DNA of 43,263 nucleotides from a virus. The stretch's first letter is position 1. Each line of letters starts with the position of its first letter. The DNA is taken from the IMG/VR virus record IMGVR_UViG_3300009431_000882; one strand, given 5' to 3'. The translations under genes and the position numbers were made by a program. Below the pieces are notes generated by a model. It was not told where the DNA came from, searched no databases, and saw nothing but the letters and a program-made list of their open reading frames with translations. Below, in pieces: positions 8,218 through 33,638 of the stretch.

Positions 8218-9575
8218 GATTTCGACAGTACTTAGAACAAGCAGAAGATGCCAAAACGATGCGGGCTCATATCCCCCTCGACCCGGAAGTTTACGTCCTA
8301 AAGAACTTGTTTGACAAGCACGGTCACGATCTGCGAGTAGTCGGCGGGGCAGTACGAGACTTCTTAACACACGTCTACCGAGGCGGTAATGGGTCGAAAT
8401 ATAAGCCAAAGGACATCGATCTAGTGACACCCGCTCCACCAGACGAAATTAAGGCGGTCATCACAAGCCAGGATGCTGAGGAGAAAGGCATCCACGATCT
8501 TCCAATTGGAGCAGCTTTCGGTGTCATAGCAGCGGTCTTTCCTAGACGCACGAATGATCCAAAAGAAAAACCACCTATGTATGAAATTGCCACTTATCGA
8601 AAAGACATAGGCGCTGGACGACGCCCTGATGCAGTAGAATACGTCTCAGATGCAACACATGATGCGAAACGACGTGATCTAGCGTACAATGCCTTATACT
8701 ATGACGTTCCTGATAAGCCCGGCGAGGAAGGGATTCTTTACGATTACAGCGGTGGCCAAGGATTCGAGGACTGTAAAACCGGTTTTCCTCATTTTGTTGG
8801 CGAGCCGCTTGAGCGTTGTAGAGAAGACAACCTTCGTGTGATGCGATACATTCGTTTTCTCTCCAGAGGACACGTGGGCGGACCAGAGGTCGTCGAGAGA
8901 GAAGACGCCAAAGCAGCGGAAGCCCTGCGACAATTTGCCAGTATGCCAGGCGTTTCGTCCGAAAGAATCATAGCCGAGTTTCTATCTGGCCTGAAATCAG
9001 CACTTGATCCGGTCAACTACCTACGTACGCTTCATCATTTTGGCATAATGGACCGCATGTTCTCCAATCTTCAAGTTAACACCAAGTTTCAGAACCTCAG
9101 AACGCTTGGTTCAGGAGACATGGTAAGGAATCCCCGGATCGTTTTGGCCTACATCCTAAAAGACAATCCACCTGAGACCCTAGGCCAGGCGCTACAGACG
9201 CTCAAATTCAACAGTCCCCAAGAAGCTGGTAGATTGGTAGAAGGCATTGTGTTTCTAGTAAGTTTGCAAAATCTCAGCACCGACACGGCTACCGGTCTTT
9301 CAAAGACTAGAGACAAACTACGGCCAGATGTAAGGATGCCTGATCCTAAAGCTAGAGAGAGCTTTATCTCTCAACACAACGACGAAATGAGAGCCTGGGC
9401 CGCTCTACTTAAACTAGATCAGAATACAATGGCTGACTTCACTCGCTATGAACGAACTATCAGAGGAACCGACCCTCGATTCGCCGGTTTGCAAGGCAAA
9501 GAGTTAGGAAAAGCAATCAAAGACGCTGAGCAAGAAGCCTTTGTTGCGTTGTCGAAAAAGAAGAAAAAGAGGTAG
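8214..9575 (+). CDS. CCA-adding tRNA nucleotidyltransferase / poly(A) polymerase family protein (class II head domain)
   Basis: Motifs LRVVGGAVRDFL...DIDLVT, YEIATYRKD, RRDLAYNALYYD and EDNLRVMRYIRFLSRG match the class-II nucleotidyltransferase head and neck. The start is reassigned to the ATG at 8214, which overlaps the upstream stop. The track ORF begins at 8118. Confidence 0.75.
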   Translation: MRFRQYLEQAEDAKTMRAHIPLDPEVYVLKNLFDKHGHDLRVVGGAVRDFLTHVYRGGNGSKYKPKDIDLVTPAPPDEIKAVITSQDAEEKGIHDLPIGAAFGVIAAVFPRRTNDPKEKPPMYEIATYRKDIGAGRRPDAVEYVSDATHDAKRRDLAYNALYYDVPDKPGEEGILYDYSGGQGFEDCKTGFPHFVGEPLERCREDNLRVMRYIRFLSRGHVGGPEVVEREDAKAAEALRQFASMPGVSSERIIAEFLSGLKSALDPVNYLRTLHHFGIMDRMFSNLQVNTKFQNLRTLGSGDMVRNPRIVLAYILKDNPPETLGQALQTLKFNSPQEAGRLVEGIVFLVSLQNLSTDTATGLSKTRDKLRPDVRMPDPKARESFISQHNDEMRAWAALLKLDQNTMADFTRYERTIRGTDPRFAGLQGKELGKAIKDAEQEAFVALSKKKKKR

Positions 9576-9576
9576 A

Positions 9577-10296
9577 ATGTTCCGTAGGTATTTTGTCACA
9601 GAGGAAACTCGAAAAGAAAACATCGTAAAGATCGACATCTTTGATTTCGATGACACTCTGGTCTACACCCCTACCGAAGACAAGGCCGCTCGAATCATAG
9701 CTCGCTATAATCACAAAGCTCAGGATCAAGGTAAAAGGCAGTTCAAACTCAAAGAAGATGAATACTACTGGTACAACCCACAATCGTTAGAACCACCAGT
9801 GGTGCCTAAGCCTACGCCATGTGCTATGTTGAACCAAAAAGTGGCACAGGAATTCTATGCTTCGCAACGAGACCCTAGCTGCCTCACTGTACTACTCACA
9901 GGCAGACCACCAGAATTGCGAAAACACATACAACGGGTTCTTGATGACTTCAAACTAAAGCCAGATCGTTTCTACCTGATGCTTAAAGGCCACCAGGTAA
10001 TGCGAAAAAAGGTCGACCGGATCGCTAAACTACTCGATGAGTTCCCACAGATAGAAGAAATCGCACTGTGGGATGATAAAGGCCCAGATCGAGCTAAACT
10101 GATTGGGAATCCCGATGAGAACCATATAGCGGACTTCAGACGATTTCTTAACATCTGCAAGGCAAAACGGGAGCGGCGAGACCCAAATTGGAAACTCAAA
10201 ATCAAAGTAAATGAAGTGCCGCCCCGTGATGAAGAGTCAGTGAAACTGCTACTACAACAGAACCCTGACTACGGAAACGCAGAAAAGAAGCGCTAG
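9577..10296 (+). CDS. HAD-superfamily phosphatase, resembling the T4 polynucleotide kinase phosphatase domain
   Basis: Motif I DIFDFDDTL (DxDxT), motif II LLTGR and motif IV WDDKG, in the same order as T4 Pnkp (FDVDGTL, VSGR, IDDR). The ATG lies 1 nt after the stop of the CCA-enzyme gene. RBS AAGAGG. Confidence 0.6.
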   Translation: MFRRYFVTEETRKENIVKIDIFDFDDTLVYTPTEDKAARIIARYNHKAQDQGKRQFKLKEDEYYWYNPQSLEPPVVPKPTPCAMLNQKVAQEFYASQRDPSCLTVLLTGRPPELRKHIQRVLDDFKLKPDRFYLMLKGHQVMRKKVDRIAKLLDEFPQIEEIALWDDKGPDRAKLIGNPDENHIADFRRFLNICKAKRERRDPNWKLKIKVNEVPPRDEESVKLLLQQNPDYGNAEKKR

Positions 10297-16411: not shown

Positions 16412-16971
16412 AGAGGAACACCGTAATAACCTTGGTTGTTTTGGCAGCAGTTACTGCCGCCGTTGTCTGTGCACTAACATTCAGTTGTCTCTGGTGGCTC
16501 TACAACCCCGGCCGTTCCCTCGGCGATCCCGTGTACAAGGAGGTGACGGGCACGATTGAAGATGTTTTCTGCTGCCAGGATCAAGAGACAGTGAAGTTCC
16601 GCTTCGATGATGGTAGGGTCATCACTTTGAAGGCTCCCGACTTCATTCAGTACCTGGAAGAAACCAATCAGCGTGCCTTCTGGTACAACGAACAAGGCAA
16701 GTTGATCGAACTAACAATACGCCAAGACGACACCGGCGACTACCTCGACTCGTTTATACTCAAGCCGCCACCAATTGATATAACAAAGTTCACACGAGAG
16801 GAACTGGCACGAGCAAAACGAGATCAAGAGAACGCCCTTGGCCTGGCGGCCGAGGCTGCCAGGAAAGAGTGCTCCGAGCAAGGAATCGACCCCGATTCCC
16901 CCGAGGGCGAGCAGTTTATTCTGATCCGGGTGGACGAGGCAATCCAGGCAAAGCCGTACCCTCCCCGGTAG
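16408..16971 (+). CDS. hypothetical membrane-anchored protein, 187 aa
   Basis: SD GGAGCAAGAG. N-terminal TM helix. Confidence 0.5.
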   Translation: MKRNTVITLVVLAAVTAAVVCALTFSCLWWLYNPGRSLGDPVYKEVTGTIEDVFCCQDQETVKFRFDDGRVITLKAPDFIQYLEETNQRAFWYNEQGKLIELTIRQDDTGDYLDSFILKPPPIDITKFTREELARAKRDQENALGLAAEAARKECSEQGIDPDSPEGEQFILIRVDEAIQAKPYPPR

Positions 16972-16997
16972 GCCCTGAAAAATTGCTCCAGATAGGC

Positions 16998-17025
16998 TTG
17001 ACACGGACTCCGGGATCGCTAGAAT
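16998..17025 (+). promoter_or_regulatory. sigma70 promoter P1: TTGACA-N16-TAGAAT
   Basis: Consensus -35 at 16998..17003. -10 TAGAAT at 17020..17025. Confidence 0.55.
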
Positions 17026-17067
17026 CGGTCGAGTCGCCTGCGGGTGACGGATTTTTTGGAAACAGGC

Positions 17068-17095
17068 TTGACAACAGGCCAACAACCCTTAAAAT
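17068..17095 (+). promoter_or_regulatory. sigma70 promoter P2: TTGACA-N16-TAAAAT
   Basis: -35 at 17068..17073. -10 at 17090..17095. Confidence 0.5.
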
Positions 17096-17289
17096 CGGAG
17101 GTGGATTGACAAAGGTTCTTGCCGCCCGCCCCGCACCCAGTGACGGGGCGGGCGGCGGCGGAGTCAATCAGACCTGGGTTTTCTAGTCATCCGGTCAATA
17201 AGGAGTCTTTCAGCTTCATGGATGCGAAGGCAACAGCCACCTAACTAAACCTTTAATCACGGTGGGCTGAAAACAAACGCTTTCAGGGC

Positions 17290-17318
17290 TTGACTCCAAC
17301 TAGACAGATCGCTAGAAT
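17290..17318 (+). promoter_or_regulatory. sigma70 promoter P3: TTGACT-N17-TAGAAT
   Basis: -35 at 17290..17295. -10 at 17313..17318. The flank GATCGCTAGAATC is shared with P1. Confidence 0.55.
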
Positions 17319-17405
17319 CCCTGGTGTCAATGAGCGGAGAACAAACGCTCACGACGCTAGTAGGTTGTTAAGAAGACGGACGGGAAGAAAGTTGTTCGTG
17401 ACCTC

Positions 17406-17434
17406 TTGACAACCTAACAACACAACGCTAAGAT
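17406..17434 (+). promoter_or_regulatory. sigma70-like promoter P4: TTGACA-N17-TAAGAT
   Basis: -35 at 17406..17411. -10 at 17429..17434. Confidence 0.4.
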
Positions 17435-18541
17435 TAACGAACACATGTGGCCCCTGGGAGTTGGGACCGTTGGAGCGCAAGCAACGACCTAACCACTCCC
17501 TGGGCCGCTTTTGATCTTTGACAATTTGGTGAAGCGAGTCCCAACATCATAATGCTCTTCAGCATATGATGGCCTGGCAAACTGAGATTTGTGGGACACT
17601 CGATTGGAAAGAAAGACTGGGCTGCTCCAGTGGGTCAGTTTTTTCAACCTCATCCAGGGTGATGAGCCCAAAGGTGAGTAACCAGCGAGGACAAAACCCT
17701 AATCCGCAAGAACGGGGTGGGAGAACTGTCAAGGTTCTATGTTGAAGGATATAAGCGGTCCTTCCGTAAGGATTGATTGTCGAAACCAGCAACGGAACTC
17801 ACAAACAGGCATCGATCAGTTAAGGGCGGCAGAAGGCTATAAAGTTGCCATCATAAGAAGGACCAGAAATGGCCTGGAACGATGTTGGTTGTGGAAAAGC
17901 CTCCAAAAGAACTCGGACACAAGCAGTATTGCTAAGCAGCGACAAAGAGAGTCTCCAAAGCCAATCCGGCTAAACTTGTTCTGGTAACAGAAAAATCGGT
18001 GTCGGAACGGTGCCGATTTTCTCCTAAGTTGCTCTGCGGGAAACAGCGAGGACACGTCGGCCCTAACAGACGGACAGGAAAACGTGGAAACCGCATCTAT
18101 ACGTCGAGCGGCCAACACGCCCTCCCAGAACGATGGGATGATACTGTAGCAAGTATCGAAAGTCTGTGAGCCTAGTGGACATCAACCACTTAGAAACGAG
18201 GTAGAAACCTAACTACCAAAAAACAATAGGAGGTTGTGGGAACTCATAGTTTGGGTACGAGCGGATGGCAGCAACTTCGGGACAAAGGCCCGACCCCTTG
18301 GTGACAGAGGGAATCGGCTTGACTACCGGAGAAGTGAAAATCCAATCACAACCAAAACACGAGCCACAGCTATGCCACTGGCAGGTACCACGGTCGTACG
18401 CAGCGGCCGTTATACGGTGGCCTCAAAAGGGCCAGCAGACAGACCTGGCAGTAATGACGTATTGGACAAAGCGCATGGGACTCACGATACTTGATTTGTA
18501 GGTGGATCAAACTGTCTGTGGATCGAGTAACTGTCTGCGAG

Positions 18542-18579
18542 AAAGCCCCGGCACTTCGGTGTTCGGGGCTTTCTTTTTG
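18542..18579 (+). terminator. intrinsic terminator (AAAGCCCCG-gcacttcggtgtt-CGGGGCTTT, then CTTTTTG)
   Basis: GC stem followed by a T-tract, on the plus strand only. Confidence 0.65.
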
Positions 18580-18709
18580 CGCCGACCGCAATGCTAGCAC
18601 AGTCATAAGTGCTTGTGGCAGCCGTTCTTAACTCGCCTTGACCGAATTTTCATTTTCTGCGATGATGCTGCCAATAAGCACCTAACAACCACGGGAGGGA
18701 GACCAGGAA

Positions 18710-18952
18710 ATGACTAGCGACGATATCCGGTCACGATTGGTCCAGGTCTGCACAGACAATCTGGGCATTGATGAAGATTAACTGACCACCACCGGCGCAA
18801 CATTCAAGTCTCTGGGGGCCGACTCCCTAGACCTGGTGGAAGTTTTCATGGAGACGGAAGAAGAGTTCGACATCAACATCCCCGATGATGATGCCGAAAA
18901 AATCACGTCCTTCGACCAACTCCTCGCATACGTCCAGGAAAAGTCCGAATAG
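18710..18952 (+). pseudogene. acpP: acyl carrier protein (ACP) gene interrupted by an in-frame TAA at codon 24
   Basis: RBS GGGAGGGA 9 nt upstream. The translation [79 protein letters not shown] carries the DSL phosphopantetheine site and an overall ACP fold pattern. The single TAA at 18779..18781 sits where E, K or Q is expected. Confidence 0.6.
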
Positions 18953-18966
18953 GAGCAGAGAACCAA

Positions 18967-19386
18967 ATGGCTGCGGATTTTGCAGAACGATCACAAACAG
19001 TGTTGCAAGTGGCCCAGCGGTTATTCGACACCGATCCAAAACCGGATTGGGTCACGTTCTTCCGTGAAATCATGGGAGTCGAAGGGGCCATCGTCAAAGA
19101 ATTTCCTGGTGCAAATGAAGCACGGCAATTCGAGCAGACTGACGCATACAGTCAGATTCAGGGCATGGTGGGCCAACTTCGCACCGACGAGTTGGAACAA
19201 ACCGCTGGCGAAAAAACCCAAACGATTACACCACGGGTACCCGTTAGCCTCCATGTGGCTCTCAAGGCGGAGGTAAAGCAATTGAAGGATAATGGGCGTC
19301 CGGGTATGAGCCTCAACAGGCTCGTGATTACCAAATGCCTCGCTCCGACGAGGCCCGAGTTATTGCCGCCCAAAGCTAACAGCTAG
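18967..19386 (+). CDS. hypothetical protein, 139 aa
   Basis: SD AGGAGCA. ORF with normal composition. A stem-loop follows the stop at 19383..19417. Confidence 0.5.
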   Translation: MAADFAERSQTVLQVAQRLFDTDPKPDWVTFFREIMGVEGAIVKEFPGANEARQFEQTDAYSQIQGMVGQLRTDELEQTAGEKTQTITPRVPVSLHVALKAEVKQLKDNGRPGMSLNRLVITKCLAPTRPELLPPKANS

Positions 19387-19454
19387 TTAGTCGTCGTCGT
19401 CCCAAACGACTAGCTGTGTGTGATTAAGCGACCCAAAGTACAAGGAGCACCTCT

Positions 19455-19787
19455 ATGCGCTTGCTGTCTTATCTTGCGCAGCGACAGGCGCTGCACCTCA
19501 CCTTCCGCTTTCAATGGTTTGACAACTGGCAAGCCACTCAAAAAGATGACCACCCTCCTGTTCCTCTTTGTGTCATCGCTGTCATCCTGTTCCTAATCGT
19601 TGCCGTTGTCTTGCCTTTCGGCAGCATCATCGGCATCTTTGCCGCCGTAACCTGGTTTGCCTCCCAGCCAGACAACCCAGCTTCGTCGGCAACATTAGCG
19701 GTTCTCGTCTTGATTTTCTGCTCAACATTTCCTGGAGTCATCTGGGCTTTCAATAATCCAGACGAAAACAAATGGCCCACGTGGTAA
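19455..19787 (+). CDS. hypothetical membrane protein, 110 aa
   Basis: SD AAGGAG. Two or three TM helices. Confidence 0.5.
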   Translation: MRLLSYLAQRQALHLTFRFQWFDNWQATQKDDHPPVPLCVIAVILFLIVAVVLPFGSIIGIFAAVTWFASQPDNPASSATLAVLVLIFCSTFPGVIWAFNNPDENKWPTW

Positions 19788-19824
19788 ACCCGTCGTTACG
19801 TCCCAAACACAAGGAGAACCGATT

Positions 19825-20355
19825 ATGCCATTGGTCGCCCCCTCACTCGAAACCGTAGCCTGCGCTCTCACGGTCGCCGTCGTCCTTCTTTGGGTATGGG
19901 GTTGGGCAAAGAAACACATCAACGCACAACCCATAATCAAGGAACGATTCAACAACTTTGGTCCCTATTGGGTGATGGCCGCCCTCGGCTTCGGCTTTAC
20001 GGCCTTCGTCATGTACTACGGCAGCCACGTGCCGCCAACCGACTACCAAGAAAGACACCACAGCATCCAAACGCAGATCAGCCAAATCCACCATTGGGCG
20101 GACCATACCAGTTTGGGGCAAAGGCTCTTCGTCAATGACGACGAGCGACTCGAACTGGCCAACGAGATTAACACGGAATTGCTCGCCGCCATAGAAGAAT
20201 ACAATCAACTCATGCGGGACTACCAAACCCGTGACCCAATCCTGGAAGCATATCAGCGGACAACTTTGATTGCCGTATTATGGATCGTCGGCATTTGTGG
20301 TGTGATCTTCGGCGCATTTGGAGTAATCGCCGGGATCATTGCCATCGATGACTAA
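19825..20355 (+). CDS. hypothetical membrane protein, 176 aa
   Basis: SD AAGGAGAA. TM helices at both the N- and C-terminus. Confidence 0.5.
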   Translation: MPLVAPSLETVACALTVAVVLLWVWGWAKKHINAQPIIKERFNNFGPYWVMAALGFGFTAFVMYYGSHVPPTDYQERHHSIQTQISQIHHWADHTSLGQRLFVNDDERLELANEINTELLAAIEEYNQLMRDYQTRDPILEAYQRTTLIAVLWIVGICGVIFGAFGVIAGIIAIDD

Positions 20356-20365
20356 GGAGTTCAAC

Positions 20366-20812
20366 ATGGCAGAATTCATAAACGTACTAGGCATCGTGCC
20401 TGTGCTCATGTTGGGCTTGATGTTGTTCTACTGTCTTGACCTTCTGCGTAAAAACAAAACGATGAAAGTCGAGGCAAACAAGGTGCCTGATCTGGAGGCT
20501 CGGAACGACAGGCTAAACGACTGGTTGGGTAAGAAGCAGAAAATGCTCGACCATATGCAGAGAGAGGCCGAACAACAACGAGAGGCGTTTAATGCCCTCG
20601 CCGAGGCCAACGCCAAACTGCGAGAGTCGGAGGCCCACGCTAGGCGAGAGTTTGAACGAGCCGCTCGGGCGCACGCAGAAGCCTGTGTTTGCCTGATGTC
20701 CGCCAATGCCACCATTGATCGAGCAACGAAACAAATCAAGTCTCTCAACAGACAAGTGACTGCGAACAACGGGCATCTAGCTCGTCTGCGAAGAGCCACA
20801 ATGCTCTACTGA
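20366..20812 (+). CDS. hypothetical membrane-anchored coiled-coil protein
   Basis: ATG at 20366 with TAAGGAGT 5 nt upstream. The track ORF starts at a TTG at 20339. Confidence 0.5.
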   Translation: MAEFINVLGIVPVLMLGLMLFYCLDLLRKNKTMKVEANKVPDLEARNDRLNDWLGKKQKMLDHMQREAEQQREAFNALAEANAKLRESEAHARREFERAARAHAEACVCLMSANATIDRATKQIKSLNRQVTANNGHLARLRRATMLY

Positions 20813-20962
20813 ACAACCGAAGGACGAGAAGCAAGAGGAACTGGGAGATGACGGGAACTAGCATCACACGTGCTAGCATAAATCGCAACCCTCCCTCGCT
20901 GGAAAGGCCGCCCTCACGGCATCGCCGTGGGGGCGGCTCAACCCCTCTGCGAAAAAGTCGCC

Positions 20963-20991
20963 TTGACCCACTTTTAGGATTTCGTTAGAAC
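20963..20991 (+). promoter_or_regulatory. sigma70 promoter TTGACC-N17-TAGAAC
   Basis: -35 at 20963..20968. -10 at 20986..20991. It lies upstream of the small ORF at 21043 and the gene at 21186. Confidence 0.45.
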
Positions 20992-21042
20992 GTGCGGTAA
21001 GTCGTTACGTTCACGCAAAATCCGCATGTAGGGAGGTTTGTC

Positions 21043-21186
21043 ATGCGGTTTCGCCATCTTATGGAAGGCGTCATGTTGACGTTTCTTCTCCCGTTAGGTT
21101 TACTCGCCTGGACCATCCATTTGATGAATCCAGCGTCGATGGACATGATTACCCGTGTCACTTTCATGGAGTTTCTCGTTGAGTAA
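21043..21186 (+). CDS. candidate small membrane protein, 47 aa
   Basis: GGGAGG 7 nt upstream of the ATG. Hydrophobic core LTFLLPLGLLAWTI. Its stop TAA overlaps the ATG of gene 21186 (TAATG). It falls below the ORF-track length cutoff. Confidence 0.35.
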   Translation: MRFRHLMEGVMLTFLLPLGLLAWTIHLMNPASMDMITRVTFMEFLVE

Positions 21187-21527
21187 TGGGAGAGTTCAAA
21201 CGGCGGATCATTCTGGAGGCCCTCAGAAAGGGGACTGCTAGAGAACTGGAGGAATTGGGGGAGCAAGATGGAAGGGACGCTTTAGGGGTTTACGACCTTA
21301 TCGACGTGGAAATGGTTCCCCTGGAAACTGAAGTTAAGAAGACATTGAGGAAGAGACGACAAACGCATCATACGATAACAATTCTCTCACGCATGTTCGC
21401 CCGAATGGTCTTGTTGGCGGAAAGGTGCCTTACCGATCAGGAGGCAACAGAGTTAATGACTCGGTTGGGCATGAAACGAACCTCACCCAACGCAGTGTTG
21501 GATAGTACGGAAGAGGCCACTGATTAA
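21186..21527 (+). CDS. hypothetical protein, 113 aa
   Basis: ORF, coupled to the upstream small ORF. Confidence 0.5.
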   Translation: MGEFKRRIILEALRKGTARELEELGEQDGRDALGVYDLIDVEMVPLETEVKKTLRKRRQTHHTITILSRMFARMVLLAERCLTDQEATELMTRLGMKRTSPNAVLDSTEEATD

Positions 21528-21542
21528 CGGAGTGTTGAACCG

Positions 21543-22106
21543 ATGACTACCCCAGAACCATATGCTGTATTTCAAGTTCAAATTCGTGTCACCAAAGGCA
21601 AAGCTAAATTCGAGCGCCCTTTACCCAACGGCCTGACAGAGCTTAGTCCGAGCCAGGGTTGGGTAGCCCTTGAGCCAGCATTTTCTGGCGAAAGGGCAGG
21701 ACCAAAACAGCATCTCGAATTCTTACTTGGCCAGGTCGAGTTGCTGTTTGATTTGTACGGGAGACCGAACCAGCCACTCGCAACCGCTGCCAAGGTCGAG
21801 GCAATTCAACTACTCTTGAAGGAAGCCGCTCCCGTACTTCGAGATTTGAGCGAAACCGACGATGAGAGAACACATCCAAACTGTTCACTCGACCAGGCGA
21901 AAGAGGCTTTTTGTCGTCATCAGCAAACCACAATCAAAACCCTGGAGTCGCAAGGGTGCAGCGCCAGGTTAAGATTGATTTCCTTTAGAAAAGACGAGGT
22001 CTTGCAGGAAACTGATAGAGGTTATGGCGTCGACATTCTAGCCAGAACTAGAGCCGGTAGGACCGGCTCACCCACTATTCCACGGATGACTATGCCAGTA
22101 GGCTGA
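21543..22106 (+). CDS. hypothetical protein, 187 aa
   Basis: GGAG 10 nt upstream. ORF with normal composition. Confidence 0.5.
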   Translation: MTTPEPYAVFQVQIRVTKGKAKFERPLPNGLTELSPSQGWVALEPAFSGERAGPKQHLEFLLGQVELLFDLYGRPNQPLATAAKVEAIQLLLKEAAPVLRDLSETDDERTHPNCSLDQAKEAFCRHQQTTIKTLESQGCSARLRLISFRKDEVLQETDRGYGVDILARTRAGRTGSPTIPRMTMPVG

Positions 22107-22119
22107 AAGGTAACAAATC

Positions 22120-22686
22120 ATGCGCTGGAGATATACGCTGCTTGTAGCGCTCGTGTTCCTCGCTGGTTGCGAACACAGCATCATCGGTGTAATCACCAAC
22201 TCGAAAGAAGTCATCTGCAAAAATGTCAACGGTGACTATGAGACGGTCACACTCATCACCGTTGAAGACGAACAAAACGAAGACCATTCTGTCATACTTG
22301 CCTGGCAGGAGTGTAATGACCCGTGTTCGGGCAAACGCTACGTCATCAAGTACACTACAAACTGTAAGATTGGTGGCTTTCCCTCAGTTCAGAAAGCAAA
22401 TCAAACCGACGCCCCTTTCGTTGGAGACATGGAGACTGCCAAAGAAATGCTGGCACCTGCGCCAGGAGAGTTGTTGATTGATCTCAAGCTGGATAAACGC
22501 CAACTAACCAAACAACTCGGCGAAGAGTGTGTTGTTCAACACTTGGGACAAGACAAGGCATTTGTCATCCACGCTACAGACAAAGGCTGCACAAAGTTGA
22601 CCACAGCAAACATCGGAGAAGATGGCCTAGTCACAGATGACGTATCCTTCACGCACGATCCAATCGTGATTGTGCGAAGTCAGTGA
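22120..22686 (+). CDS. putative lipoprotein, 188 aa
   Basis: The N-terminus MRWRYTLLVALVFLAGCEHS reads as a signal peptide with an LAGC lipobox. Confidence 0.55.
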   Translation: MRWRYTLLVALVFLAGCEHSIIGVITNSKEVICKNVNGDYETVTLITVEDEQNEDHSVILAWQECNDPCSGKRYVIKYTTNCKIGGFPSVQKANQTDAPFVGDMETAKEMLAPAPGELLIDLKLDKRQLTKQLGEECVVQHLGQDKAFVIHATDKGCTKLTTANIGEDGLVTDDVSFTHDPIVIVRSQ

Positions 22687-25999: not shown

Positions 26000-26647
26000 A
26001 TGAATAAGAAAAAGAAGAACAACAAGCATGGGGCGAAGAGCGAAGGGATTATCGCCGCCATCTTCGGAAAGAACACGCCACCGCTGGGGCGATCCCCAGC
26101 GGTGGCGTTGTGGAATCCCAAGTTCGCTCATAACGTTGGGACGGCGCTCAGGGCCTGTTCTTGCTTCGGCATCAAGCAACTATGGTTTAGCGGGGACCGG
26201 GTAGAGATTGACTTGGGCGGCAAGAAACGCTTGCCCAGAGAAGAGCGCATGAGAGGTTATCGAGATGTCGAGCTTCGGCAATTCGACACCTTCTTTGACC
26301 AATTCGACAATGCGGTTCCCGTAGCCATCGAACTTCGTGATAGCGCCGAACTTCTCCCCGATTTCCAACATCCCAACAATGCCCTCTATGTCTTCGGCCC
26401 GGAAGATGGTAGTCTACCAGGTGTAGCACTAGGTCACTGTCACCGCTTCGTAGTGATCCCCACCCACCACTGTACCAACCTGGCCGCTGCGGTTTACATT
26501 GTGTTATACGACCGCCTCGTGAAGCGGATCGCCGAAGGCAAGGAGGAGAAGCGGACCCTCAAGGAATTCCTGCATGAGCACCGAGGTTTCGTACAGGCGG
26601 GGGATGATGTTGCCTGGCAGAAGGGAATCAGAGAAACCAGATGCTAG
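26000..26647 (+). CDS. SpoU/TrmH-family (SPOUT) RNA 2'-O-methyltransferase
   Basis: Motifs NVGTALRACSCFG, LYVFGPEDGSLP and IPTHHCTNLAAAVYIVLYDR match the three SPOUT motifs. Confidence 0.75.
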   Translation: MNKKKKNNKHGAKSEGIIAAIFGKNTPPLGRSPAVALWNPKFAHNVGTALRACSCFGIKQLWFSGDRVEIDLGGKKRLPREERMRGYRDVELRQFDTFFDQFDNAVPVAIELRDSAELLPDFQHPNNALYVFGPEDGSLPGVALGHCHRFVVIPTHHCTNLAAAVYIVLYDRLVKRIAEGKEEKRTLKEFLHEHRGFVQAGDDVAWQKGIRETRC

Positions 26648-26782: not shown

Positions 26783-27781
26783 GTGTCAAACATGGAGGTT
26801 GCCTACCAATGCTCGAATTGCAACACGCTCCACTACGGCAGTGGAGTTGTATCTATGTGGCGGCTCGATCTCCGCCGTTTACCGTGGATACATCGTGCTG
26901 GAACCAGGGCAAAGCGATGCGACTGTTGCATCGCCCCCGCTTCCCGCCGCCCGGTGGTCTACCGATGGGTTTGGGATGAACCCGACCCCACAAAACTGAC
27001 ATTGGCTGCTATTTCGGTGATGTGGCGAATTCGCCCTTTTTTACAGCGGCCTTCAATTATCGTGGCTGGTCTCTTAGGACTACTTACACAACAACGAAGA
27101 GCAGGTCACGTTGAGATACAAGTTGTTACGTATGAGGAGTTCACTTGTGTCGGACGGGGCGACAAAACATCGATAAGAGAAATCGACGCTCGCCCTTGGC
27201 ACATCCTACTATCAACAAACGAGGAGACAGAAAGCATGTCAAATCAACAGGCCCCACCACAACCCGCAAAGCCGCCTGAAGGTCAAATTGGCGGCAAAGC
27301 CTATCTGTGGGTCATTGGAGCAGTTGTACTGCTGATTATCGGTATCGTTATCGTGAAGAACCGTAGCGGCGATGATACCGAGGTATTGCCAAGTGGCGAG
27401 ACGACGACCACAACGACCGATGACACCGGCACCGGCACTACGGAAACGCCCGCTACGGATGCAGGTACGACACCTGCCACGGGTACGCCAGCGTATACGG
27501 CACCAGCGACCACAACGCCAGGTACCACTACCACGCCAGCGGAGACGACGCCAGCAGTGACCACGCCAGCAGTGGCCACGCCAGCGGAGACGACGCCAAC
27601 ACCGGTCACGCCAACGGAGACGACGCCAGCACCGGCTACGACTCCGGCACAACCGGTAACGACACCGGATAACACGACTCCCTCGACCGAACCGACTACC
27701 GAGGAACCGGTTATCACGTTGCCGGACAATCCCACACCCATCACGCCACCGACTGAGAATCCCACGGGGCCGAGCGGGTAA
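26783..27781 (+). CDS. TM-anchored protein with a Thr/Pro-rich repeat C-terminus (alternative start at 27236)
   Basis: The track ORF begins at a GTG at 26783 with a Cys-rich N-terminus (CSNCN...CDCC). An internal ATG at 27236 has GAGGAG upstream. It is followed by the TM helix AYLWVIGAVVLLIIGIVIV and then TP-rich repeats. Confidence 0.5.
   Translation: MSNMEVAYQCSNCNTLHYGSGVVSMWRLDLRRLPWIHRAGTRAKRCDCCIAPASRRPVVYRWVWDEPDPTKLTLAAISVMWRIRPFLQRPSIIVAGLLGLLTQQRRAGHVEIQVVTYEEFTCVGRGDKTSIREIDARPWHILLSTNEETESMSNQQAPPQPAKPPEGQIGGKAYLWVIGAVVLLIIGIVIVKNRSGDDTEVLPSGETTTTTTDDTGTGTTETPATDAGTTPATGTPAYTAPATTTPGTTTTPAETTPAVTTPAVATPAETTPTPVTPTETTPAPATTPAQPVTTPDNTTPSTEPTTEEPVITLPDNPTPITPPTENPTGPSG
27400..27700. 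repeat. imperfect tandem DNA repeats encoding the T/P/A-rich segment
   Basis: Repeated ACGCCAGC(A/G)G and GAGACGACGCCA(G/A)C units are visible. Confidence 0.5.
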
Positions 27782-27930
27782 CTCGCCACGTCACACAGTT
27801 CTGGGAGGTCTTTTCACGTAACCCGCCCCTCGCCGCTCGGCGAGGGGCGGGTTTTTTCGTGTTGGAGGGAAACAGCAAACCTGCTATATTTCTTGTCAAC
27901 CCCAAAACCCTTAGAGAAGGAACCCCAATC

Positions 27931-28491
27931 GTGAAGAAATCCATCGTATTCCTACTTGGACTCGCCGCCGTCAATGTGATGTTCTTCTTCGTGGCCTTGA
28001 GCTACGATAACGCCGAGATCGAACTGCGCAACACAATCCTGGCTAAGCAAAAGACCAACGAAGCGTCGTTTGACACAATGTGGAAGATACTCAAACAACA
28101 GGCCAGCATTCCCGATAAGTACAAGGAGGACTTCAAGGAAATCTGGCCCGACCTGATCCGGGGCCGCTACGAGCAAGGCAGCGGCAAGATGATGAACTGG
28201 ATTCAGGAGCATAACCCCGAGTTCAAAGGCGGGGAGATGTACATGAAGTTGATGGACAGCATCGAGGCCGAGCGTAAGAGGTTTCTGCGAGATCAAGAAG
28301 AACTCGTCCAACTCAACACCGAACGCAACAACATGATCCAGAAGAAGGTGCCCAAGTTCTTCCTGGGCCTCGTCGGTGGTGAAGAATCCCTCAAGCCCAT
28401 CGAGATCGTCGTCATCACATCCGAAGTCACGGAGCAGACCTTCGAGAGCGGGAAGGAAGACAACGTAGACTTGTTCAGTTCACCGGGGTAA
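27931..28491 (+). CDS. hypothetical membrane-anchored protein
   Basis: GTG at 27931 with GAGAAGGA 9 nt upstream. N-terminal TM helix. The track ORF begins at 27859. Confidence 0.45.
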   Translation: MKKSIVFLLGLAAVNVMFFFVALSYDNAEIELRNTILAKQKTNEASFDTMWKILKQQASIPDKYKEDFKEIWPDLIRGRYEQGSGKMMNWIQEHNPEFKGGEMYMKLMDSIEAERKRFLRDQEELVQLNTERNNMIQKKVPKFFLGLVGGEESLKPIEIVVITSEVTEQTFESGKEDNVDLFSSPG

Positions 28492-28495
28492 AGAA

Positions 28496-29095
28496 ATGCC
28501 ACACGGCACGGCAGCATACATCAGCGACCCCGTCGCCAACGCATTTGATCTGACGAGAGACCTACAACAGTGTAAGGTACTGTTTGTCACAGGCGAGAAC
28601 TGCGATTCCTCCTATTATCTTATGGCTCCCAAGTTGGCAAAATACATCCGCTTCACGGCCCCCGGCACTCACTATCCACTACACGGCCTGTCAGTAGCCT
28701 GGCGTTCTCCCGAAGGTGACGAAGACCCAGCAGAAGCGTTGATATGGGTAGAGAACCGTTTGCCTGATGCCAACCACTTGAAGTTCAACGGTTTCCCAGA
28801 GAAATGGGATTTCAAAGCACGTTTCGCACAAGAGACGCAAGAACTCGACGGAATGGTGAGACAAGGCGCAGCCCATGTTGTCGCTAATCGAAAACGCTTT
28901 GAAACGTTGCTGTGCCTCCCAGATGTCGCTCTGGATAGGTATCATTCCATGTTAGCGGAGGATTACTCCGGTCTTACGTTGGCCGACGACGAAATCACTG
29001 ACTTGCAACTATCCGATGACAGCGACCAAACCCTACGTGCCCTAAACCTCTCTGACGAAATGATCGCACGCATTCACCAACTAAAACAGCCATGA
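28496..29095 (+). CDS. hypothetical protein, 199 aa
   Basis: ORF. Its stop overlaps the next start (ATGA). Confidence 0.5.
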   Translation: MPHGTAAYISDPVANAFDLTRDLQQCKVLFVTGENCDSSYYLMAPKLAKYIRFTAPGTHYPLHGLSVAWRSPEGDEDPAEALIWVENRLPDANHLKFNGFPEKWDFKARFAQETQELDGMVRQGAAHVVANRKRFETLLCLPDVALDRYHSMLAEDYSGLTLADDEITDLQLSDDSDQTLRALNLSDEMIARIHQLKQP

Positions 29096-30282
29096 TAATC
29101 TACTCGCTCTTCCTAATCCCTTTCTTCGTAGCTGCTGTCTTGTGGCTGCTGTGGGGCGAGCGCACAGCCTGGTGGGAAATGCTCATCATATTGATCGTGA
29201 GCACGCTCCTCATCATCGGGACCAAGTTTGGCGTTGAATACACCCAGGTATCCGACATCGAATACTGGACGAACAAAGTAACCAAAGCCGAGTACCACGA
29301 AGGATGGACCGAAGAGTGGTACACCAACGAAGACATCAAAGACAGTAAAGGAAGGGTCACGGGCACCAGGCGAGTGCGCCATACCAAACGCCACCCGCCT
29401 GAATACTATCTCATTCTCCATCCCAGCGGCAAAACGTCCGTCAGCCGCTCCGTCTACCGGAAAATGGCCAGCAAGTTCGGGAATGAGAAAGAGAAAGACT
29501 TGTACCACTCCGGTCAGTGCTCGTGGGGCGACGGTGATATGTACTATTCGGTCTTTCGTGGTGCCCGAGATAAAATGACCGTTGCCACCACCGAACACCG
29601 ATACGAAAACCGGGTACGAGTTGCCAAGACTGTCTTCGATTTTCCAAAGGTCACGGACAAGCAGAAGAAAGACTACCGGCTTTTCGATTATCCCAAAATC
29701 AACGACCCCACTACCATCCCTAGCATCTTAGGCAATGGTGGACCAACCCTGGTTGCCGCCAACAAAGAATTGTGCCGCCTCAATGCCGAACTTGGTCCAC
29801 GTGGTAATCACCGACAGGTGCGCCTGTGGGTACTCATCTGGCAGAACCAGTCTCTCGACGCCGGTATGCTTCAAGAAGGGTATTGGTTTGGCGGCAACAA
29901 GAATGAATTGGTGGCCTGCATTGGCACCGACAGTGAATACAACGTGAAGTGGGCTTATGTCTTCTCCTGGTCGGAAGAGGAAAACCTGAAGATCGATATC
30001 CGCAGCTTCATACGCAAACAGAAGAAACTCGACCTAGTGCCCATTGTCGATATGATGGGAGAAGAAGTCGAGAAACAATGGATTAGAAAACAGTTCAAAG
30101 ACTTCAGCTATCTCACCGTCGAGCCGCCGTTGTGGGCCTTCTTCACATCTGGGGGTGTGATCTTACTTATCAACATCGGTATCAGCCTGTGGGTCGTTCT
30201 TAACAGCTACGATGCCGACGGCCAACGACACCGCTTCCGTTACCAGCCACGATGGAGAAGAAGGAGAATACGAAGGTGGTGA
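29092..30282 (+). CDS. hypothetical membrane protein, 396 aa (two N-terminal TM helices, one C-terminal)
   Basis: Long ORF, translationally coupled to the upstream gene. Confidence 0.5.
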   Translation: MIIYSLFLIPFFVAAVLWLLWGERTAWWEMLIILIVSTLLIIGTKFGVEYTQVSDIEYWTNKVTKAEYHEGWTEEWYTNEDIKDSKGRVTGTRRVRHTKRHPPEYYLILHPSGKTSVSRSVYRKMASKFGNEKEKDLYHSGQCSWGDGDMYYSVFRGARDKMTVATTEHRYENRVRVAKTVFDFPKVTDKQKKDYRLFDYPKINDPTTIPSILGNGGPTLVAANKELCRLNAELGPRGNHRQVRLWVLIWQNQSLDAGMLQEGYWFGGNKNELVACIGTDSEYNVKWAYVFSWSEEENLKIDIRSFIRKQKKLDLVPIVDMMGEEVEKQWIRKQFKDFSYLTVEPPLWAFFTSGGVILLINIGISLWVVLNSYDADGQRHRFRYQPRWRRRRIRRW

Positions 30283-31586: not shown

Positions 31587-31616
31587 TTTAGCAAGAACTA
31601 AGGATTGGATACGAAA

Positions 31617-33638
31617 ATGACTAGGACAAAACGTCGACTATTGTTGGAGTCGCTGGAAAAACGGGAGTTGTTGACGGGAGCGACGTATCACTACGACACT
31701 AACGGAGACGATCTAGTTAATACGTTAGATATCGTTGCGTGTATTAAGGAGATTGATGAAAACGGTATTGGCCCTGTCGAAGAAGCAAATAATCCACTTG
31801 TTGATATCAACCAGGATAGAGTAATATCAACGCTTGATGTACTGGTGGGTGCGACGGAGTTAGGTCGAAGACATCACAATCCAATAGAAGTCGAAGCTAG
31901 AATCTGGGGCGAGTTGTACGAAGATAATAATGGTATACCAGGAGAACCACTGCCGTTGACACCGAAGCCGGGGGATTATGCAGTGCGGGTAGGGGATTCG
32001 TTCTTTCTAGCTGTGATGGTGCAAGAGAACTCAGACATCAACGGATTTAACCGGATTCATCTCAACCTGGAGTGGTACAATGAGTCGCTTCGGGCAAAGG
32101 CTGTAGATGAGGTAATTACAGAACATTTTACGGAAGACCACACCGGCAGTGTTAACAATCATGTAGGAGTAAGTGGCGTAGTTCTAAACCTCGGCGCATC
32201 GGCTGGCGAAAACGGCAGACCGATTGGCGACAACCAACCTGAAGTGTTTGCGATGTTGCAGTTCGAGGTGGTAGGCATTGATCCGGCAGGGCTGACGCCA
32301 ATTTGGTTGACCGAGGGGGAGGACGGGATAAACCCAGACCTCGAAATAGAGTTCGATCATCCGATTATTCGAGCCGAAACTACAAGGACCAATGATGACA
32401 TTTGGGAAGTACCTCAGTATTACAAAAATGCTCCCCCGCCTTACGATTCATCACATTGTGTAGACTGGGGCAACTTCTTCGTAAACCTTTGGACAGACGA
32501 AGATGGTCGTCCAGGAGAATGGATTGCTGACGATACAGTCAAACCTGGCGATCTATTTTGGGTCCAAGTTTTGGCCCGTGAATGCGATCCGATGCGAAGT
32601 GGTTTTCAGGGCTTGGCAATGCATTTCAGATGGGATAGTGAAATCTTAGAATTATACTATCCATTTGATCCTCAGTATGTGTTGGACAAAAAACACATTT
32701 ATCCTTCTCACCCCCGTGTTTCTACATGGCTTTCTGAAGATCAAACCGGCGTGCTTGATAATGAAGCCGGAACGCTAGCTAATCTCGGCGGCCAGCCTCC
32801 GCAAGGCAAAATGTTTGCCGATGATATCCAAGGAGACCCAAAGAGAGTGGCGACGTTGCTATTTGAGACTATTGCCACTGGAGACACTGGGATTACCATT
32901 ACCGACGTAACAACCAACCCAACGCCTGATACGTTAGATATTCGGGACATTAGTTTTACCATTATCGACAGCGAAGTCCCCGAACAGCCCAACCCGCCCA
33001 CGTATTACCCCAGACCAGGAGCGCCGCCTAATGAAGTGTATCTTCAAGCATATGAATATACGGTTCCTTGGTCTACTGGAATAACAGCGGGTGAACGTCC
33101 AGGGTATCAAATTCTCAATGGTCAAGTCGGACTTGGTGAGAAGTTTTATGTAACTGTGCTGGCCAACCATGCGGATGTTGGTTTTGATGATTTTCGTGTA
33201 TCTCTTCAATGGGACGCTACCAAGATAAAAAACATCAATGATTCATTTGAGGCGTCCAAAGCAATTACTCCGCATTTGCCTTTGTTTGATTTCGCACGCA
33301 GATATTATCATTCCCGAAGAGACGGGATATTAGGAAATCTTGGCGGCTCTGCATTTACTGCATTTGGGGTTGGTAGAACCATTGGTAACTTAACGCCAGA
33401 ACCGTTTGTTTGGTTGCCGTTTCGAGTGAAAGAAGATTTACCAGAAGGCCCATCTTTCCAAGTTCGCAGTTACACTGATCCTTTCACGGTTTATAACAGC
33501 TATTGGGAAGATGACGTTTTAGTTACACCGTTTCACATGAACAGGGGCGCAATTGTTCCGCAACCCGTTGCTAACTGGCACCGAGAGCAGTTGTTCCTTG
33601 AAGATCAACTTATCCGAATAGAGATGTGGGAAGAATGA
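31617..33638 (+). CDS. secreted protein with a Planctomycetes-type N-terminal motif and dockerin-like repeats, about 673 aa
   Basis: The N-terminus MTRTKRRLLLESLEKRELLTG is the Planctomycetota secreted-protein leader. Two dockerin-like repeats follow: DTNGDDLVNTLDIVACI and DINQDRVISTLDVLVGA. Confidence 0.6.
   Translation: MTRTKRRLLLESLEKRELLTGATYHYDTNGDDLVNTLDIVACIKEIDENGIGPVEEANNPLVDINQDRVISTLDVLVGATELGRRHHNPIEVEARIWGELYEDNNGIPGEPLPLTPKPGDYAVRVGDSFFLAVMVQENSDINGFNRIHLNLEWYNESLRAKAVDEVITEHFTEDHTGSVNNHVGVSGVVLNLGASAGENGRPIGDNQPEVFAMLQFEVVGIDPAGLTPIWLTEGEDGINPDLEIEFDHPIIRAETTRTNDDIWEVPQYYKNAPPPYDSSHCVDWGNFFVNLWTDEDGRPGEWIADDTVKPGDLFWVQVLARECDPMRSGFQGLAMHFRWDSEILELYYPFDPQYVLDKKHIYPSHPRVSTWLSEDQTGVLDNEAGTLANLGGQPPQGKMFADDIQGDPKRVATLLFETIATGDTGITITDVTTNPTPDTLDIRDISFTIIDSEVPEQPNPPTYYPRPGAPPNEVYLQAYEYTVPWSTGITAGERPGYQILNGQVGLGEKFYVTVLANHADVGFDDFRVSLQWDATKIKNINDSFEASKAITPHLPLFDFARRYYHSRRDGILGNLGGSAFTAFGVGRTIGNLTPEPFVWLPFRVKEDLPEGPSFQVRSYTDPFTVYNSYWEDDVLVTPFHMNRGAIVPQPVANWHREQLFLEDQLIRIEMWEE

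Follow-up and report, generated by a model that had tools for sequence, protein, structure and literature searches.

A gene-free region with four predicted promoters and candidate small RNAs in a contig of a putative huge phage

Small RNAs which arise from promoter-proximal termination are already known in phages. In lambdoid phages, transcription from PR', a constitutive late promoter, ends at tR' and yields the lambda 6S RNA, and in Shiga-toxin phages this short PR'-tR' RNA is StxS, an Hfq-binding regulatory RNA which acts in trans (PMC7547250). The giant phage 201phi2-1 possesses eleven small RNAs of <250 nucleotides (nt), each defined by a start site with a termination site shortly after it (PMC11512511). 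Four non-coding RNAs (ncRNA001-004) of 236-619 nt are known from jumbo phage PA5oct, and the two abundant ones have no other match in GenBank except the near-identical isolate MIJ3 (PMC7318152). Here, a gene-free region of IMG/VR virus record IMGVR_UViG_3300009431_000882 was analyzed. The whole 43,263-nt stretch, hereafter the window, represents one entire metagenome contig of the Joint Genome Institute (JGI). The region carries four sigma-70-type promoter sites (P1-P4) and, about 190 nt after P3, a long hairpin (H3) followed by a U-tract. We tentatively propose, with a chance a little short of even, that host polymerase transcribes the region as a unit without genes, in which H3 would act as a partial terminator and release RNAs of ~190 and ~76 nt.

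Promoter cluster, candidate RNAs and the gene-free stretch

Promoter sites were defined by at least 10 of 12 matches to the sigma-70 consensus TTGACA/TATAAT with a spacing of 16-18 nt. Only five such sites are present on both strands of the window (86.5 kb), and four of them, P1-P4, are positioned within 440 nt on the + strand (Table 1). Dinucleotide shuffles of the window (100 in number) gave 4.2 +/- 2.3 sites each, and no shuffle placed more than two of them within 500 nt on one strand; the clustering of P1-P4 is above chance. P3, from which the initial annotation expected transcription to start at about 17326, is a near-consensus site whose predicted start includes that position, and P4 is a fourth promoter which was absent from that account. 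Beyond the hexamers, P1 and P3 have GGCTTGAC and GATCGCTAGAATC in common in the -35 and -10 regions, and P2 and P4 share CTTGACAAC. From their sequences the promoters look duplicated. Tandem duplication of entire modules was rejected, as the alignment is confined to the promoters. At each of the four promoters, a stable hairpin is situated 0-6 nt from the predicted start. A cluster of four promoters would imply very high early expression. The only site outside the cluster, at 6205-6233, lies on the strand opposite to the overlapping gene 5961-7277 (- strand). As one site outside the cluster stands against about four expected by chance in the window, it is probable that most genes of the phage are served by promoters of another type, or that strong host-type promoters are avoided.

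The interval 17326-17520 (195 nt) folds far better than its shuffles in RNAfold, which was one of the checks suggested together with the initial prediction (-76 kcal/mol, z = -5.64), and its centroid structure is the same as the minimum free energy (MFE) structure. The predicted fold is composed of three separate hairpins, H1, H2 and H3. The stability of the interval is higher on the + strand than on the - strand. The outer arms of H2, TAGGTTGTTAAGA (17361-17373) and TCTTGACAACCTA (17404-17416), are complementary at 12 of 13 positions; self-complementarity of this kind had been noticed before, with arms somewhat different from these. The energy of H2 is -25.6 kcal/mol on the + strand and -17.6 kcal/mol on the - strand. 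Similarly, H3 has -35.8 kcal/mol (z = -3.97, with 0 of 200 shuffles as stable) while its complement on the - strand has -29.4 kcal/mol (z -1.8). Because of G-U pairs, H2 and H3 favor the + strand RNA over the complement by 6-8 kcal/mol, an excess which would be expected if a + strand transcript makes use of such pairs.

H3 ends at 17508 and UUUUGAUCUUUG begins at 17509, so that a GC-rich stem immediately precedes the U-tract, as in intrinsic terminators. An imperfect hairpin had been marked at 17449-17506, and its arms, GGCCCCTGGGAGT (17449-17461) and ACTCCCTGGGCC (17495-17506), are found exactly there; RNAfold adds two pairs. In a uniform scan of the + strand of the window for hairpins next to T-runs, H3 ranks first in stability, on a level with the clear terminator at 27820-27853. 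Sequence features of this kind are what a discrete short RNA requires. The candidate small RNA of about 185 nt proposed earlier is supported in part, with a promoter, a hairpin and U-tract ~190 nt further on, no coding signal and strong structure, while a nested RNA from P4 and a longer unit had been missed. The nested RNA of ~76 nt, which would contain essentially H3 and its U tail, is as likely as the ~190-nt species, since the predicted start of P4 is 6 nt before H3.

The coding signal is absent throughout 16972-18709 (~1.7 kb). TAA, TAG and TGA are all frequent in all six frames of this stretch, and no frame has a positive codon-usage score at 17000-18600, compared to +0.1 to +0.26 in the flanking genes. 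None of the small open reading frames (ORFs) of the stretch has an AAGGAG-type ribosome-binding site at the spacing typical of the contig, and no match to Pfam was obtained in six frames. Protein homologues of the + strand frames were not present among the best 8000 candidates listed, which is a weak test. No tRNA or tmRNA was found. Stop-codon recoding that would mask a gene was rejected, since each of TAA, TAG and TGA is found in every frame and is also used to terminate normal genes. A pseudogene remnant was rejected on the absence of Pfam matches in six frames and of protein homologues for the + strand frames among the matches listed. The canonical intrinsic terminator at the downstream end appears to close a non-coding unit of 1.25-1.55 kb, and the candidate RNA would be the front end of this unit.

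According to the proposed mechanism, P1-P4 fire rightwards, presumably with host RNA polymerase. Transcripts from P3 and from the nested P4 would run into H3 and its U-tract, where partial intrinsic termination would produce structured non-coding RNAs of ~190 nt (P3) and ~76 nt (P4). The polymerases which read through would traverse ~1 kb of ORF-free RNA and halt at 18541-18579. The short RNAs would then be phage small RNAs of the promoter-proximal-termination type, as the lambda 6S RNA/StxS and the small RNAs of giant phages, and not 6S mimics.

Table 1. Predicted features of the gene-free region and its borders (positions in the window; energies in kcal/mol, z against shuffles)
Feature	Position	Strand	Description
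P1	16998-17025	+	Sigma-70-type promoter, TTGACA-16-TAGAAT, 11/12 consensus matches
P1 hairpin	17033-17057	+	Small hairpin GUCGCC/GGUGAC followed by GGA and UUUUUU; begins at ~+1 of P1; -11.3, z -1.9
P2	17068-17095	+	Sigma-70-type promoter, TTGACA-16-TAAAAT, 11/12
P2 hairpin	17104-17170	+	13-bp perfect all-GC core (17121-17133/17144-17156), outer stem GAUUGAC/GUCAAUC; -50, z -5.0
P3	17290-17318	+	TTGACT (17290-17295)-17-TAGAAT (17313-17318), 10/12; predicted start ~17324-17327
H1	17326-17355	+	Hairpin at the 5' end of the P3 transcript, core GAGCG...CGCUC; -15.2, z -4.45
H2	17361-17416	+	Two-tier hairpin, 13-bp outer stem, G-U-rich inner stem; z = -5.74
P4	17406-17434	+	TTGACA-17-TAAGAT, 10/12; inside the candidate RNA; predicted start ~17441
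H3	17447-17508	+	62-nt imperfect hairpin, GC-rich basal stem GUGGCCC/GGGCCGC, apical GCAA tetraloop; proposed intrinsic terminator stem
U-tract	17509-17520	+	Directly 3' of H3; predicted 3' ends ~17514-17518
Read-through segment	17521-18540	+	ORF-free, purine-rich, modest structure; two weak hairpin and U-run sites at ~17611-17644 and ~17996-18021
Canonical intrinsic terminator	18541-18579	+	GAAAGCCCCGG-CACUUCGGUG-UUCGGGGCUUUC then UUUUUG; cUUCGg loop; -27.5, z -3.8
Separate promoter-like site	18638-18666		After the terminator, before the first downstream gene

Two hairpins precede P3. The P1 hairpin is a weak terminator-like site and may also end the transcript of the upstream gene. The P2 hairpin begins ~2 nt past the predicted start of P2. 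A second short hairpin RNA had been suggested to arise from P2, and the 13-bp perfect GC stem at 17121-17156 is present as described. The U-run behind it consists of just UUUU (17179-17182) at 22 nt from the stem, and as this is too far, the hairpin is no canonical terminator. Between the P2 hairpin and P3, at 17200-17244, an AAGGAG is followed 12 nt on by an 8-codon mini-ORF (MDAKATAT and a stop). This is probably chance, because the spacing is longer than in the real genes of the contig.

Several points weigh against the proposed mechanism. Recognition of the sigma-70-type promoters by host polymerase is assumed. Transcription, the efficiency of termination and action in trans are all inferred from sequence, with any termination at H3 and the trans action of the short RNAs as the least certain points. 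H3 is a 62-nt hairpin with internal loops, compared to 33-34 nt for the clear terminators of the contig (18541, 27820 and 34265), and its U-tract has only four consecutive U. In the predicted fold, the upstream AAGAUUAA is able to pair with the U-tract, and termination may be lowered by this pairing. Only modest structure is present in the central 1 kb (z of -2.3 for the + strand, -1.6 for the - strand and -0.2 for the coding control), and the mechanism does not account for this segment. No target or protein partner of the short RNAs was recognized. In addition, H3 is not among the sites listed by a consensus terminator scan with loops of 3-8. The clear terminators of the contig are far shorter and less interrupted than H3, and termination at H3 is therefore probably partial.

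Relatives of the region were searched at several levels. A blastn search of 16900-18400 against 50,697 phage records gave no match, and no relatives of the flanking proteins turned up in IMG/VR, in the JGI metagenome contigs or among GTDB genomes. In a search of 5.8 billion proteins, the sole diverged relative of the upstream gene (61% identity) was found on a 1837-nt contig of JGI sample 3300042731, where the gene table shows 1237 nt 3' of the relative's gene without any called gene. This tail is consistent with a conserved gene-free region, not a proof of it. For the downstream gene, relatives were located on very small contigs or in a region of the Bremerella chromosome which lacks synteny. 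Three other metagenome contigs (samples 3300013120, 3300009314 and 3300009320) have identical proteins and represent the same strain. They are identical to the window in this region, with a single differing base far away at 27940, and population variants are uninformative on the RNA region because of this identity.

The tandem-promoter pattern matched 36 viral contigs, all unrelated, and the P1/P3 pattern had 0 matches in metagenome and viral contigs. Among 185,579 species genomes, the only exact match of the P1/P3 pattern was observed in the Ca. Poribacteria metagenome-assembled genome JAJRTO010000172.1 (1999-2031 of the stretch L055). This site is promoter-like and is positioned ~180 nt upstream of an ORF starting at L055 2210, which, judged by its opening residues MLLAIDVGNTN, is taken as similar to the type III pantothenate kinase gene (coaX). 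It also has ACTCC in the spacer like P1, with 85% identity over 34 nt. With ~1.6 chance hits expected, the match is probably chance, or it may hint at the host group.

Competing explanations

The locus may be a purely cis-acting gate, in which the promoters and serial terminators (H3 and 18541-18579) form a leader which keeps transcription out of the downstream co-oriented genes (ACP-like, HicB-like and others) as long as the phage has not made an antiterminator, and the ~190-nt RNA would be a mere by-product. The layout is like that of lambda PR'-tR' with Q, where the short RNA is made constitutively (PMC7547250). The cluster is the sole strong sigma-70-type group in 43 kb, several terminator-like sites occur in series, and eight co-oriented genes follow at 18710-22686. 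However, a gate would make the ~1 kb ORF-free spacer superfluous, and it is weakened by the second terminator itself and by the separate promoter-like site of the first downstream gene. Moreover, no antiterminator-like protein was recognized; the upstream 187-aa protein has no match in Pfam or PHROG. We consider this explanation unlikely, though deserving a real share of belief.

Unrecognized small-protein genes or decayed gene remnants, with the hairpins as ordinary intergenic terminators, are a rather improbable explanation. Phage early genes are often tiny and atypical, a 40-aa ORF was called by JGI at 18372-18494, and the in-frame TAA (18779-18781) of the neighboring ACP-like gene would represent gene decay nearby. 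All the coding tests described above speak against such genes, from the codon scores and ribosome-binding sites to the Pfam search and, as a weak test, the search for + strand homologues among the matches listed.

The hairpins could also matter as DNA, in a genome end, a packaging site or a transcription-activated replication origin with early promoters. In T7 and T5, strong early promoters adjoin the genome end. The contigs of the three other samples, which are independent assemblies, end or start at 17108, 17132 and 17152, all at the all-GC P2 hairpin. These breaks could reflect a physical end of the genome or a variable junction, or else a dropout in sequencing or assembly. In PA5oct, the terminal repeat contains the two highly expressed non-coding RNAs (PMC7318152). 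However, the breaks are not at one exact coordinate, and as the coordinates differ, they are explicable by poor sequencing of the GC hairpin. Iterons, tandem repeats and an AT-rich unwinding region are all absent, GC skew and gene orientation stay unchanged across the region, and the clearly higher stability of H2 and H3 as + strand RNA points to selection at the RNA level. A DNA-level element is judged improbable.

It is very improbable, though conceivable, that huge phages possess a new large non-coding RNA which spans the entire unit of ~17030-18580 (1.25-1.55 kb) and is abundant early in infection, with the 190-nt and 76-nt species as its processed or terminated sub-forms. It could be a decoy or scaffold for proteins such as RNA-binding or defense proteins of the host, or a partner of the RNA-centered proteins of the contig (those with the MVP-shoulder domain, the CCA-adding and HAD 'Swiss Army Knife' proteins and the SpoU methylase). 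Like GOLLD and ROOL, the locus would be a long non-coding unit with own promoters and terminator in a phage genome. Unlike them, it has no Rfam match, only modest structure in the central 1 kb (z = -2.3) and no adjacent tRNA genes; covariance models of GOLLD, ROOL, HEARO and OLE gave no match.

Least of all, a phage 6S RNA homologue or mimic which sequesters host sigma-70 RNA polymerase is scarcely credible: the size-class link to 6S RNA drawn in the initial annotation does not extend beyond size, since the likeness to bacterial 6S RNA (SsrS) is in predicted length (~190 nt) alone, with only a strong promoter besides, no 6S match was obtained from Rfam at E <= 10 on a 641-nt search space, and the MFE and centroid folds show three independent hairpins with no 5'/3' closing stem, rod or central bubble.

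Phage context and neighboring genes

Most of the ~45 ORFs of the window have no family match. A 210-aa protein (27859-28491) matches PHROG 1383 "virion structural protein" (E = 3e-36), and the adjoining 396-aa protein (29092-30282) matches PHROG 2087. The best relatives of both belong to the 595-kb uncultured phage LR756511, the ~540-kb Lak phages, Bacillus phage G and Tenacibaculum jumbo phages. The nearest viral relatives of an M16 peptidase are on IMG/VR contigs of 511 kb and 315 kb. As the genes with family matches point to a very large phage, the contig is taken to be a piece of an uncultured huge phage genome. There is no synteny of the window with the 511-kb and 315-kb contigs or with LR756511; only single genes are common.

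RNA-centered genes are present in the ranges 2518-5379, 8118-9575, 9541-10296 and 26000-26647. A 953-aa protein contains a major-vault-protein (MVP) shoulder domain (E = 4e-13). The gene of a CCA-adding enzyme/tRNA nucleotidyltransferase overlaps that of a HAD 'Swiss Army Knife' RNA-repair domain by 35 nt (9541-9575), and a SpoU methylase is also encoded by the contig. Among the ORFs of the contig, there are also matches to cpYpsA SLOG (E = 2e-31) and DUF2934 domains. The ORF at 26783-27781 possesses tandem 15-nt repeats at 27483-27650 (nine overlapping 45-nt copies, equal to about eleven 15-nt units), which form a pentapeptide repeat. Near the contig end, at 43113-43157, about five copies of the 9-nt repeat GTCTTCCTG are found. 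A 677-aa protein (31605-33638) contains an N-terminal 'Planctomycete extracellular' motif and a dockerin domain, a weak hint of host lineage. Together, the hints point weakly toward the planctomycete or poribacterial side.

The first of the eight downstream genes, at 18710-18952, resembles that of an acyl carrier protein (ACP), with a Pfam PP-binding match (E = 8e-11), a PHROG ACP match (E = 1e-15) and a DSLD motif. Its in-frame TAA is at the position of a residue which is normally Glu in ACPs, and the JGI call covers just a 34-aa C-terminal piece. Since TAA ends 16 normal genes of the contig, this codon is not recoded, and it represents a nonsense mutation (a pseudogene or split gene) or programmed read-through. 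At 18967-19386, a 139-aa protein is 42% identical to a protein of the planctomycete Bremerella cremea which is named HicB-family antitoxin by NCBI; the homologue is situated in a non-syntenic region of the chromosome. A phage-borne antitoxin-like gene could have an anti-defense function.

Comparison with known RNA systems

The region has no match to any Rfam family at the gathering score. A CsrB/RsmZ-type sponge was rejected, as GGA is enriched (35 vs 19 +/- 5) while AGGA/ANGGA is not (7 vs 5) and an Rfam match is absent. With respect to Hfq signatures, the tail of H3 has its four consecutive U, and (ARN)3-5 tracts are not enriched in the region.

If the proposed transcription unit is real, the 1.7-kb gene-free stretch is a dedicated unit read by host polymerase, and the locus joins the very few orphan, highly promoted non-coding RNA loci described in huge phages. 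Small RNAs which phages make by promoter-proximal termination are able, like StxS, to regulate genes of the phage as well as of the host. At present the locus amounts to a well-formed prediction and is not a discovery. Both the promoter cluster and the gene-free unit are notable and would be no surprise to a specialist, and they have no bearing on any long-standing open question.

Among the described systems, the locus resembles lambda 6S RNA/StxS in having a strong promoter and an intrinsic terminator within ~200 nt; the predicted distances are ~190 nt from P3 and ~76 nt from P4 to the end of H3, and the RNA here is a predicted one. It differs in possessing four promoters instead of one, in its place in a huge phage and not a lambdoid prophage, and in the absence of sequence similarity. 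In addition, no Q-like antiterminator gene or qut-like site was recognized in it, and its first terminator is followed by ~1 kb of gene-free sequence and a second, stronger terminator, not by a late operon. Like the small RNAs of 201phi2-1 and PA5oct, it is situated in an ORF-free region of a very large phage genome. In those phages the transcripts were observed, whereas here they are predicted, and the dense cluster of four host-type promoters is particular to this locus. Taken together, the locus is positioned outside every defined RNA family, and it would work like a promoter-proximal terminated phage RNA, a kind which is already known.

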